A DNA stretch of 29,627 nucleotides. Source: Candidatus Hydrogenedentota bacterium (lineage in GTDB: Bacteria > Hydrogenedentota > Hydrogenedentia > Hydrogenedentales > SLHB01). The DNA lies in the NCBI GenBank assembly GCA_034408725.1, contig JAWXCN010000024.1, positions 1 to 29,627 on the forward strand. The letters run 5' to 3'. Numbering within the stretch: position 1 is the stretch's first letter; every line of letters begins with the position of its first letter. The notes under the pieces were generated by a model. That model worked only from the letters and a program-made list of their open reading frames with translations. It ran no database searches and was not told the origin of the DNA. Positions 27,039 to 29,530 of this stretch are shown here, in pieces. The position numbers and the translations under genes are program-made.

Positions 27039-27878
27039 TTAAGCTTCCCAAGTCCCCGTATACACCTCTGTCGCTGGGCCTTCCTGATAAACAAATCCGT
27101 CCTCTGCCCATTCAATCGTGAGCGTGCCGAAGACAAGGTGAACGTTTACCCTGCGATTGGTGCGGTCCGTTATCATGCACGCTAGCGCGGACCCGCACGA
27201 CCCGCTGCCGCTGGCCATGGTAATGCCGCTGCCGCGTTCCCAGATGCGCATGACAATGTTTTGGCGATCCTGCACGGTGACAAATTCAACATTCGTCCGT
27301 TGTGGAAACACGGGGTGATGCTCGATCTTTGGTCCGATCTCCGCCAAAGGCATTTTTGTCGCGTCATCGACAAAAAACACCGCGTGCGGATTTCCAATGT
27401 TCGCGCACGTGACGCGCATCGTCGTGCCGGCGACGTCTATCGGTTCTTCCAACACGCGGCCGGGCGCGCCGATCATCGGAATCTCCGCGCGATCAAATTT
27501 GGGTTTGCCCATGTTCGACCGCACGCGCGTGACGATGCCGTTTTCCACCGTAAGTGTCACGCGGTTTGGTCCCGCGAGCGTGTCGATCACGAAATCAGTC
27601 TTCTCCGTCATACTGCGTTCGTACACGTACTTTGCGAAACATCGAATGCCGTTGCCACAGGTTTCCGCTTCGCTGCCATCGGCATTGAATATCCGCATGG
27701 CGAAATCCGCGCCGTTCTTCCCCGGCTCGATCAGAATGATCCCGTCAGACCCCGCGCCAAGATGCCTATGACTTATCAATTTCGACAATGCGGGTGGATC
27801 AGCAATGGGATACTTCGCAGTTTCGATGAAAAAATAATCGTTGCCAAGCCCATGCAATTTTGTAAATTCAATCGTCAT
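27039..27878 (-). CDS. dapF: Diaminopimelate epimerase-family protein (second catalytic Cys replaced by Ser)
   Basis: FTKLHGLGNDY, GSDG, FNADGSEAETCGNG, GNPHAV, TNVEF, WERGSGITMASGSG; SD AAGGTG. Confidence 0.88.
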   Translation of the reverse strand: MTIEFTKLHGLGNDYFFIETAKYPIADPPALSKLISHRHLGAGSDGIILIEPGKNGADFAMRIFNADGSEAETCGNGIRCFAKYVYERSMTEKTDFVIDTLAGPNRVTLTVENGIVTRVRSNMGKPKFDRAEIPMIGAPGRVLEEPIDVAGTTMRVTCANIGNPHAVFFVDDATKMPLAEIGPKIEHHPVFPQRTNVEFVTVQDRQNIVMRIWERGSGITMASGSGSCGSALACMITDRTNRRVNVHLVFGTLTIEWAEDGFVYQEGPATEVYTGTWEA

Positions 27879-27893
27879 CGAAACACCTTTTTA

Positions 27894-28374
27894 ACCACGA
27901 AGACACGAAGAACACGAAGGAATCAAATCTGATTCGGTTCAATTCTATTACATAACAAGTCGGCGAATGCCATCCTTCAGGTAATGTTCATTAAAGTTTG
28001 GCAGCAATCCGGTTTTGATCCTGGAAAGCTTTAGATATGTCAATACCTGTGTGTTGTGGATCGGTAACAGTGAATCGACGCTTTTCAATTTCGTGACCAA
28101 CGAATCCTCGACCACGAGATCGAGTCGATATCCGCAGTCTAGCTTGAGCCCTTTGTACTCGATTGGTAACGGGGCCTGCGCCCGGAAAGCTATTCCCGCA
28201 AATCCAGCTCGTGCTTTAAACACCGCTGAGATGCGGATTCCAAAAGCCCAGGACCAAGTTCTCGATGAACCGCTAACGCGCAACCAATCACCCTGTTTGA
28301 CAAAGCATCAAATTCCATTGCAAGCCCCTTCCCGTTTTCTCCTTCTTCCTTCGAGTTCTTCGTGTCTTCGTGGT
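27894..28374. mobile_element. Putative inverted-repeat-bounded GxxExxY cassette inserted between ddl and dapF
   Basis: ACCACGAAGACACGAAGAACACGAAGGAA (27894-27922) and TTCCTTCGAGTTCTTCGTGTCTTCGTGGT (28346-28374) are 28/29 inverted matches; the interior is visibly more AT-rich than the flanking genes. Confidence 0.65.
27948..28318 (-). pseudogene. Frameshifted GxxExxY protein (PD-(D/E)XK nuclease superfamily, PDDEXK_3)
   Basis: From ATG 28318: MEFDALSNRVIGCALAVHRELGPGLLESASQRCLKHELD, with TAG shortly after; a second frame continues AGIAFRAQAPLPIEYKGLKLDCGYRLDLVVED...QVLTYLKLS..KTGLL.NF. Total 371 nt implies a 1-nt loss near 28200. Confidence 0.88.
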
Positions 28375-28377
28375 GAG

Positions 28378-29376
28378 CTATTTCTTTCTTCCCAGCGCCT
28401 CTTCCAGAAACAACGTCAGCATCTCCGGGAACGGTATCCCCGCCGCCGCCGCCGCCTGCGGGAACAGCGACGTCTCCGTCATGCCCGGAATTGTATTCAC
28501 TTCGATCCAGACCGGGTCATCGCCGTCGAGAATGAAATCGCTGCGGGAAAATCCCTTGCACCCCACGACGATATGCACACATTCTGCGATGTCCTGCACC
28601 TTCTTCGTGAACTCCGGCGAGATGCGTGCCGGCGTGATTTCATTGCACGCGCCCGGCGTGTATTTCGCTTCGTAGTCAAAGAACTCCGAATGCACCGGGC
28701 AAATCTCCGTCACTGGCAGCGCCCGAGGCGGTTTTGCCGGTTCTGTGTCCAGCACTGCGCACGTCAACTCGATGCCATTGATAAACCGCTCGATCATCAC
28801 CAAATCGCCGTACATGAATACATCGAGCAAACTCTTCTTAAAGTGCCCGGCATCTTTAGGAATGGCCATGCCGATGCTCGACCCCTGGCACGGACTCTTG
28901 ATGAGACACGGGTACCCAAATTCTGCGGCAACCCGCTTTAACGCGCCTCCCTGGTCCGCGTCCCATTCCGCGCGCGTGAGCAGAAACTGGTCCGATACCC
29001 GGACTCCCGCCTGCCGCGCCACGGCTTTCGAATGTATCTTGTCAATGGCCAACGCGCTTGCCGCGCACCCCGAGCCGGTATAGGGCAATCCATACAGATC
29101 GAATAATCCCTGTAACCGCCCGTCCTCGCCGAAGGGTCCGTGCAATGCGATGAACGCACAATCGACGCGCAATTCGCGCAAGCGTGGGAGAGCGCCGTAA
29201 ATGTCCAGCGGGTCCTCCCCCGGAAACTTCCATAGCCCGTCTCGCGAAATAATCGCCTGGGTGACGTCGTATTTTGCGCGGTCCAGGTTTCCGCTCACCA
29301 TCGCGCCACTCTTGAGCGACACTTCGTGCTCCGAACTCACGCCTCCCATTACCACGGCCACATGGGTCTTTTTCAT
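28378..29376 (-). CDS. ddl: D-alanine--D-alanine ligase
   Basis: VVMGGVSSEHEVSL, ALHGPFGEDG, QGSSIG, FFDYEAKY (Tyr, D-Ala-D-Ala type), EVNTIPGMTETSL; ATG at 29376 after GGGAGA. Confidence 0.95.
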   Translation of the reverse strand: MKKTHVAVVMGGVSSEHEVSLKSGAMVSGNLDRAKYDVTQAIISRDGLWKFPGEDPLDIYGALPRLRELRVDCAFIALHGPFGEDGRLQGLFDLYGLPYTGSGCAASALAIDKIHSKAVARQAGVRVSDQFLLTRAEWDADQGGALKRVAAEFGYPCLIKSPCQGSSIGMAIPKDAGHFKKSLLDVFMYGDLVMIERFINGIELTCAVLDTEPAKPPRALPVTEICPVHSEFFDYEAKYTPGACNEITPARISPEFTKKVQDIAECVHIVVGCKGFSRSDFILDGDDPVWIEVNTIPGMTETSLFPQAAAAAGIPFPEMLTLFLEEALGRKK

Positions 29377-29530
29377 GGTCTCTCCCGCTTCCTGTAAAGA
29401 AGGCGGCCGCGCGGAGCCGCCCTGACAATCCGGACGCGCCAGCATAGCATCGGGCGCGCGCGCGCTTCATTGATCCCTTCGCGATGCGCCAAAGTTTCTT
29501 GGAGATCGATAGTTGTCGTTTTCAAACGAC

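Follow-up and report, generated by a model that had tools for sequence, protein, structure and literature searches.

A frameshifted GxxExxY nuclease gene between inverted CACGAAG arrays in the ddl-dapF spacer of a Candidatus Hydrogenedentota bacterium, a possible dead member of a REPIN/RAYT-like system

The window analysed here is a stretch of 29,627 nucleotides of contig JAWXCN010000024.1 (assembly GCA_034408725.1) from a Candidatus Hydrogenedentota bacterium, and the element in question lies at positions 27894-28374, between the genes ddl and dapF. It is a cassette in which a promoterless gene for a small RecB/Cas4-like PD-(D/E)XK nuclease of the GxxExxY family is placed between two inverted three-unit arrays. 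The genome, called G000 in what follows, is a draft metagenome-assembled genome (MAG) that is 92% complete and consists of 280 contigs, and all genomes used for comparison are draft MAGs as well. The upstream host gene, ddl, encodes D-alanine--D-alanine ligase and is an open reading frame (ORF) at 28378..29445 that matches PF07478, PF01820 and NF002378 (308.7 bits) and ends in a TAG stop codon at 28378-28380. The downstream host gene, dapF, encodes diaminopimelate epimerase and is an ORF at 27039..27878 that matches PF01678 and TIGR00652 (289.8 bits). Both genes and the gene enclosed by the cassette are on the minus strand and co-oriented.

The cassette is bounded by inverted repeat I1, whose 29-nt arms (27894-27922 and 28346-28374) are complementary at 28 of 29 positions (97%) and are separated by 423 nt. 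It is the longest inverted pair of a 1.1-kb stretch; every other pair there is 18 nt long or shorter. The arm next to dapF carries three exact CACGAAG units, at 27896, 27904 and 27913 with a spacing of 8 and 9, and ends in ...GTGGT in gene orientation. The arm next to ddl, which is the 5' arm in gene orientation, reads ACCACGAAG-A-CACGAAG-AA-CTCGAAG-GAA and has two exact units on the minus strand, at 28358 and 28366, and a degenerate third unit, CTCGAAG, with one mismatch at 28349-28355. The two-unit pattern has two matches in the window, both within these arms, where 0.24 are expected, and genome-wide (5.17 Mb) there are 35 three-unit CACGAAG arrays compared to 0-1 for each of eight permuted units; the arms are therefore not a product of chance. 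The ddl stop codon is 3 nt from the one arm, and the other arm is 15 nt from the dapF ATG. This 15-nt spacer (27879..27893, minus strand), TAAAAAGGTGTTTCG, contains AAGGTG at 27884-27889, the Shine-Dalgarno-like sequence of dapF. There is no target-site duplication at this copy, and the bases outside the arms (…TTTTTA and GAGCTA…) are not a direct repeat. An earlier sequence-only reading of this DNA, made before any database search, had described 28/29 inverted repeats of three CACGAAG units at 8-9 spacing, the two offsets with AAGGTG kept, and no evident target-site duplication. All of this is borne out, with one of the units being degenerate.

Between the arms, in gene orientation, a purine-rich leader (28319..28345, minus strand; read directly as GAAGGAGAAAACGGGAAGGGGCTTGCA) extends from the ddl-side arm to the ATG of the cassette gene, and a spacer (27923..27947, minus strand) extends from the stop codon of that gene to the dapF-side arm. 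The gene itself is in two pieces in different frames. The N-terminal fragment (28190..28318, minus strand) has 42 codons followed by TAG and matches positions 2-38 of PF13366 (E 1.2e-8). The C-terminal fragment (27948..28199, minus strand, with a TAA stop at 27948-27950) matches positions 38-117 (E 4.5e-23). The frame is lost at a run of three G residues at 28196..28199 (minus strand) within TTGCGGGAATAG, where the frame of the homologous protein resumes one base back (GGA ATA GCT ...). Hidden Markov model (HMM) scores of the two fragments are 82.3 and 35.8 bits for PF13366 (cut-off 22) and 84.3 and 36.8 bits for TIGR04256 (cut-off 35). Set against three intact paralogues and 83 members of the family in an alignment, the window copy reads GLLESAS at the motif, with a Ser in place of the motif Tyr, and the E-x-K triad reads KLK where the catalytic ELK is expected, with a Lys in place of the catalytic Glu. 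In the 83 sequences G30, E33, Y36 and K85 are invariant, and D73 and E83 are conserved in at least 90%. The window copy passes the HMM cut-offs but departs from the family in its motif and catalytic residues and in having no single frame of about 115-130 codons. The gene is dead through the frameshift, the loss of the motif Tyr and the loss of the catalytic Glu, and as a pseudogene it is unable to mobilise anything now. The GxxExxY gene recognised by the sequence-only reading thus belongs to the family named (PF13366, TIGR04256) but is not intact.

The frameshift is not an assembly slip of this record, since the same letters are present in contigs from other sequencing runs (X3 record 1 and X5 record 20; 0 differences, 0 gaps). 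Contigs of four other runs span both cassette junctions and the frameshift, unchanged; these runs may sample one population. A look for RNA runs holding this DNA listed none. None of the contigs of the four runs joins ddl directly to dapF. One listed joint, from 27919 to 28356, was considered as an empty allele and rejected, as other letters lie between its two sides and it derives from gene-less hairpins elsewhere.

Comparison with relatives indicates that the cassette was inserted into a short ddl-dapF spacer in this lineage. The relatives' ddl loci, 29 in number, range from congeners to members of the same order, and a GxxExxY match was found at none of them. In 23 of the 29, ddl is followed by dapF, with gaps of -4 to 239 nt (usually -4 to 120 nt) and one of 856 nt; the other six have no dapF within 1.5 kb of ddl. 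In G003, the closest of the syntenic congeners, ddl is 85% identical and the spacer is 73 nt long and array-free. This spacer holds CTTCGTAGGTT, which is similar to the arm end CTTCGTGGTT and may be a relic or chance. Nothing similar to the arrays was seen within 700 nt upstream of dapF in the congeners G001, G002 and G004. The cassette-free junctions anticipated by the sequence-only reading are therefore present in relatives, which are different species, so that the exact insertion junctions are undefined. The ddl-dapF junction is unstable in the genus. In G004 (C63:5632-7600) about 2 kb lie between the two genes, and this intervening DNA opens with an ORF bearing a P-loop-like motif, GPNNSGKTT. 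In G001 and G002 the two genes are on separate contigs (loci L003-L005 and L244-L246).

The GxxExxY protein has been modelled from an intact paralogue, that of contig C56. In the 83 family sequences E33, D73, E83, K85 and Q97-x-x-x-Y101 are invariant or nearly so, and the last of these is the RecB/Cas4-type motif. The AlphaFold model of the C56 protein has a pLDDT of 96.1 and a pTM of 0.89. Its best structural neighbours are without exception PD-(D/E)XK nucleases. Cas4 SSO0001 comes first (Z 7.7, with 98 residues aligned at an rmsd of 3.1), and a restriction-endonuclease-like protein (Z 7.5), BpuSI, NucS and Hjc follow. The model shows the PD-(D/E)XK fold that the sequence-only reading had named; Z values of this size establish the fold and not a function. 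A search of PDB sequences with the family profile gave no matches at E up to 1, and a Foldseek search of the model against the PDB gave none at E up to 0.001. In a passage of one paper GxxExxY is used merely as a domain label (PMC8934634), and a table row of another gives the function of the PDDEXK_3 family as 'Unknown' (PMC3424549).

G000 has five GxxExxY loci. Inverted three-unit arrays surround all five, and no two loci share a unit. When an array is taken to be three or more units, with no more than two substitutions, the window locus (contig C24) belongs to a CACGAAG family of 35 arrays on 22 contigs. The locus on C56 belongs to a CACGGAG family of 24 arrays and its gene is intact. The locus on C173 belongs to a CACGGGG family of 18 arrays and its gene has two stops. 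C113 has an open frame and CACAGAT units (CACAGATT, 18 arrays), and C272 has an intact gene and CACCGAT units (CACCGATGAA, 7 arrays). There is thus one GxxExxY gene per unit family, with five loci and five families. The sequence-only reading had proposed to test the flanks of the other GxxExxY genes for inverted CACGAAG arrays; all four do lie among inverted three-unit arrays, but the units differ from CACGAAG. The C113 protein (L033:741-1109) has a Gly at the nearly invariant catalytic D73 in its open frame, and its G001 orthologue is 77% identical.

Gene-less copies of the repeats, which the sequence-only reading had suggested counting, are numerous. The window cassette is the sole gene-bearing CACGAAG member, and the other CACGAAG copies are mostly short gene-less hairpins. 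In four families there are 30 inverted pairs with arms 28-489 nt apart, of which 28 have no GxxExxY remnant, the exceptions being C24 and C56. The CACGAAG family accounts for 14 inverted pairs and has 19 exact arrays compared to 0 for a reversed-pattern control. Arrays of CGGGT x3 number 120, which is within the range of their permuted controls (20-176). At C35:46667-47200 in G000, tandem modules of about 117 nt are found in which CACAGAT, CACGGAG and CACGGGG arrays alternate in the same orientation with near-identical flanks (GAAGAAATTGAAACCAC...).

It is the units and not the spacers that are conserved. When arrays are selected on units 1 and 2 only, the third unit has 1.0-2.0 bits per position in at least five of its seven positions (seven, seven and five positions in three families, with the remaining low ones at 0.5 and 0.5). 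The two-base spacer before the third unit has mostly 0.5-0.9 bits, with one position at 1.6, and the positions beyond the array have 0.1-1.2 bits, mostly below 1. All five loci share an array start of ...CCAC, and the outer flanks carry family-specific extensions, such as AAGA...TTTCA ahead of CCACGAAG.

A second type of cargo is packaged in a similar way. PF05635 is a four-helix-bundle family called '23S rRNA IVS protein', IVS being intervening sequence, and five of its six loci in G000 are bracketed by inverted arrays of their own unit. These five (L115-L119) are at C254:9929-10240, C161:529-840, C161:7513-7809, C259:6950-7156 and C183:11105-11323, and no arrays were seen at the sixth, on C255. 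The units at these loci are CGGGTWTC, ACGAGC, TTTTAGA, CACGGAC (on C259) and ATGGGA, with tens of arrays of each genome-wide; no separate control accompanies the counts for CACGGAC, ACGAGC, TTTTAGA and ATGGGA. Loci of both protein families were surveyed across many phyla, where a locus passed if its flanking inverted repeat scored at least 14 and above all 20 shuffles. For GxxExxY, 45 passed of the 75 public loci (of 80) that had enough flank, with CRCNRAG-type units at a period of 8-9. For PF05635, whose 80 loci were found with a single protein as query, 59 of the 76 with enough flank passed, with contiguous 7-mers such as GGGTCTA and AGGCAGT. No 5-mer is among the most frequently repeated ones of both sets. 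In a relative, at locus L230 (G012:C76:1120-2112), two tandem GxxExxY genes, 642 nt apart from start to start, are each found among CACCAAG-type arrays, forming a small cassette array.

The second cargo brings in an explanation at the level of RNA. In ORF-bearing IVS of 23S rRNA, as here, a small promoterless ORF is enclosed by inverted ends able to pair as a long stem, and the array-bounded layout is shared by the PF05635 genes of G000 and the 59 surveyed loci that passed. The cassette differs from these IVS in being located between the protein-coding genes ddl and dapF, not in helix 25 or 45 of a 23S rRNA gene, and in having a nuclease as cargo where they have a four-helix bundle. It is conceivable that the arm stem of about 29 bp in the ddl-dapF transcript is cut by RNase III, which would free the cassette mRNA and separate the ddl and dapF messages, with the periodic units being a by-product of the origin of the arms and DNA mobility being rare. 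The predicted fold of the 511-nt cassette RNA is closed by the long arm stem (-174.2 kcal/mol, z -4.5 compared to shuffles), and the cassette is co-oriented with its neighbours and, by sequence scan, has neither a promoter-like site on its own strand nor a terminator-like site. It is relatives of the four-helix-bundle cargo that give the 23S rRNA IVS family its Pfam name, and the Coxiella IVS has been called a selfish element with an S23p ORF (PMC4990558). However, the arm mismatches show no significant sense-strand G-U preference (32 vs 22 at GxxExxY loci, 27 vs 36 at PF05635 loci), and about half of them are transversions. No Rfam family matches in 27700-28500. The concentration of conservation in the units also counts against this explanation, since a plain stem would not need it, and the explanation is considered distinctly unlikely.

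The history of the cassettes can be followed in the genus. Three of the five G000 cassettes have orthologues in congeners: C56 corresponds to G001:C4, C113 to G001:C20, and C272 to G004:C20, where the gene has decayed. The GxxExxY orthologues of G000 and G001 differ by 0.14-0.22 per nonsynonymous site (pN) and 0.85-0.89 per synonymous site (pS), which gives a pN/pS of about 0.16-0.25. The 5' arm of the C56 cassette is identical in the two genomes at 27 of 27 positions; the flanking genes differ at 49-59% of synonymous sites. Could the cassette be a domesticated module that benefits the host, for example by setting relative expression within operons, and not selfish DNA? Three cassettes kept at orthologous loci across species, a protein under purifying selection and perfectly conserved arms would agree with this. 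The ddl-dapF copy, on the other hand, is decayed and absent from all relatives examined, two of the five genes in G000 are broken (C24 and C173), as is the G004 counterpart of C272, and copy numbers vary widely between congeners. A domesticated module is therefore very unlikely.

The arms are also sites of rearrangement, as the orthologous copies show. In G000 the C56 cassette has an extra segment of about 110 nt after the gene, ending in a second right arm. At C113 the gene of G000 is flanked on either side by an entire gene-less hairpin, and G001 has single arms there. One intergenic site can also be occupied by different hairpin families in different species. Between gap and pgk, G003 has a CACGAAG hairpin (C602, L256:1503-1570) and G000 a CACGGAG hairpin (C232:14121-14195), and a second orthologous site holds a CACGAAG hairpin in G002 (C11, L248:1574-1750) and an ATGGGA-type hairpin in G000 (C48:~690-860). 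Nine CACGAAG-array loci of G002 and G003 were mapped to G000; two of them lead to the same array, C70:20843, one each to the two sites just described, and five are unplaced. A 3.3-kb hairpin region of G000 that was searched as DNA in four congeners gave mostly multi-copy repeat matches, with too much noise for empty sites to be defined.

The system that these observations resemble most in anatomy and population structure is REPIN/RAYT, which consists of doublets of repetitive extragenic palindromic (REP) sequences and a REP-associated tyrosine transposase (PMC3116915, PMC3337134 and bioRxiv 10.1101/2022.05.22.493013). In both, a genome carries short inverted-repeat doublets by the tens in its intergenic regions. 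Each repeat family has a single gene, flanked by the repeats of that family and largely inherited vertically at a fixed locus. The enzyme class and the arms are different. A RAYT is an IS200/IS605-like HUH Y1 transposase, whereas the protein here is a PD-(D/E)XK (RecB/Cas4-like) nuclease of about 125 residues (PF13366), and the arms here are phased arrays of three 7-10-nt units instead of a single REP palindrome. In addition, several families coexist in one genome here. By analogy with REPIN/RAYT, the GxxExxY nuclease may be what mobilises the repeats.

The best explanation at present, which is held tentatively and could well be wrong, is that 27894-28374 is a decayed hairpin-bounded GxxExxY cassette, a dead member of a REPIN/RAYT-like system in which intact proteins act in trans on their own unit class. 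An intact GxxExxY protein would recognise the phased units of an array, probably as an oligomer and probably on DNA, and would cut at or near the conserved CCAC/GTGG termini. Cutting would maintain and spread, in trans, both the gene-less hairpins and the gene-bearing cassettes, as in REPIN/RAYT, and new copies would preferentially enter intergenic spacers, often ones that already have such a hairpin. In the transcript the arms would pair with each other, and the long stem so formed would seal the cassette, much as in the ORF-bearing IVS of 23S rRNA.

A number of observations weigh against a nuclease-driven system. The binding, cleavage and transposition chemistry of the GxxExxY protein is inferred, unlike the anatomy, insertion, family structure, conservation and turnover of the cassettes. 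CACGAAG is the largest family in G000 and has many perfect copies, though its gene is dead; in an incomplete draft MAG an intact CACGAAG-cognate gene may be unassembled. As three of the five G000 cassettes are at orthologous congener loci, gene-bearing copies move rarely. Exact three-unit CACGAAG arrays number 19 in G000, 0 in G001, 8 in G002, 5 in G003 and 0 in G004, and exact CACGGAG arrays number 12, 8, 12, 0 and 2 in the same order. A cognate gene was found only in G000 (both units) and G001 (CACGGAG), all three of which are array-rich cases, but three of the six array-rich cases have no detected cognate gene (12 CACGGAG and 8 CACGAAG arrays in G002, 5 CACGAAG arrays in G003), the congener assemblies being 87-93% complete. 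G007, a member of the same family of bacteria, has 42 PF13366 matches, among them six cassette copies of about 575 nt on six contigs (L257-L262) that are 88-91% identical and have unrelated flanks and outer terminal inverted repeats (CCCCAATCGCCGGATAA...). In all six the HMM match is split at one profile position, 69/70. Three parsed copies have their frameshifting insertion at one and the same site and evolve neutrally (pN/pS 0.8-1.05), so cassettes multiply without a product of their own. No target-site duplication is evident at four of the G007 copies or at the window copy. Non-nuclease four-helix-bundle genes share the array-bounded packaging, and the units of one of them, on C259, are of the CAC type (CACGGAC), so that the separation of unit classes between the cargo families is imperfect. 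Within GxxExxY the fine-scale match of protein to unit is weak. A FastTree tree of 38 GxxExxY proteins has 22 changes of unit label compared to 25.1 when shuffled (9 of 1000 shuffles as low), and homologues with CACGAAG arms (best rank 20 of 83) are no nearer to the window gene than those with CACAGAG arms.

These points lead to another explanation, in which the hairpins are the mobile or self-renewing entity, moved or regenerated either by an unlinked enzyme or by host processes such as template switching at hairpins and arm recombination, and the GxxExxY and four-helix-bundle genes travel in their loops as passengers. The nuclease gene could then serve defence or addiction, or its product could be a homing-type endonuclease by which the gene is copied into hairpins that lack one. 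Two unrelated protein families in one architecture, the multiplication of dead cassettes in G007, arrays that persist without a cognate gene, the replacement of hairpins of one family by another at a single site, and the gene-less hairpins that flank the C113 gene in G000 where G001 has single arms all speak for this. The pS of the cassette genes (L031:754-1140 vs L226; L033:741-1109 vs L237) is also much higher than the 0.49-0.59 of the flanking genes. This could reflect exchange of the gene between cassettes, which fits passengers, or weak codon constraint, as from weak codon bias in a poorly expressed gene. Passengers would not, however, account for one gene per unit family in G000 or for a unit class that tracks the cargo family across phyla, and an unlinked enzyme has no candidate, no search for one having been made. 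We consider this explanation unlikely, though to be taken seriously. It and the two discussed above are partly compatible with the tentative reading of a dead REPIN/RAYT-like member. That reading restates in part the proposal of the sequence-only reading that this is a selfish element whose nuclease may mobilise its repeats. Neither of the outcomes that the sequence-only reading had named as refuting it was observed, and the layout, the cassette-free relatives and the gene-less copies speak for the proposal. The dead local gene, the different units of the other genes, the arrays without a cognate gene, the dead cassettes that multiplied in G007 and the non-nuclease cargo limit it.

Two other kinds of element can be compared. 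Like miniature inverted-repeat transposable elements and insertion sequences, the cassettes have terminal inverted repeats, discrete ends and many short gene-less copies, and the G007 copies resemble such elements in their 88-91% identity between unrelated flanks. Unlike them, the cassettes encode no recognised transposase family, the window copy has no target-site duplication, and the arms are internally periodic. Integron cassettes also consist of a single promoterless ORF with a hairpin-forming repeat that resembles a recombination site, and the tandem genes of L230 are reminiscent of them. The repeats here are on both sides of the ORF and have no attC consensus, and the cassettes are scattered within operons and not downstream of an integrase, for which no search was made.

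A description of array-bounded cassettes for GxxExxY/PDDEXK_3 or PF05635 was not found in the literature covered, which did not include subscription journals; passages on PF05635 genes are silent on flanking repeats. The copy in the window is one of a hairpin-repeat family that is widespread and apparently undescribed, in which each kind of repeat goes with a small gene of its own. A broader proposal, possible but doubtful, is that hairpin arrays form a very large class that extends across phyla and has not been described so far, with the GxxExxY and PF05635 proteins as its dedicated trans-acting proteins. Each lineage would read its own phased units and would spread by replacing or entering existing hairpin sites, which would explain the different families at one site in sister species. 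This class would include the ORF-bearing 23S rRNA IVS as well as many of the 'unexplained' short tandem repeats in intergenic DNA of bacteria. The cyanobacterial STRR heptamer repeats may be related to these arrays.

Among the bacterial families of small proteins listed as 'function unknown', GxxExxY/PDDEXK_3 and the 23S rRNA intervening-sequence protein are two of the largest. G000 is a compact test bed, since it combines five nuclease genes, some intact and some dead, with five repeat families. If the tentative reading is true, both families would gain a testable role, as the partner of a specific phased inverted-repeat family, and the REPIN/RAYT paradigm would gain a nuclease-based counterpart. 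Annotators would be warned to treat such genes as insertions and not as members of the operons in which they are found, and the reading would explain why such genes are wedged inside operons, including cas operons, where PF05635-type genes have been noted (PMC3936711).

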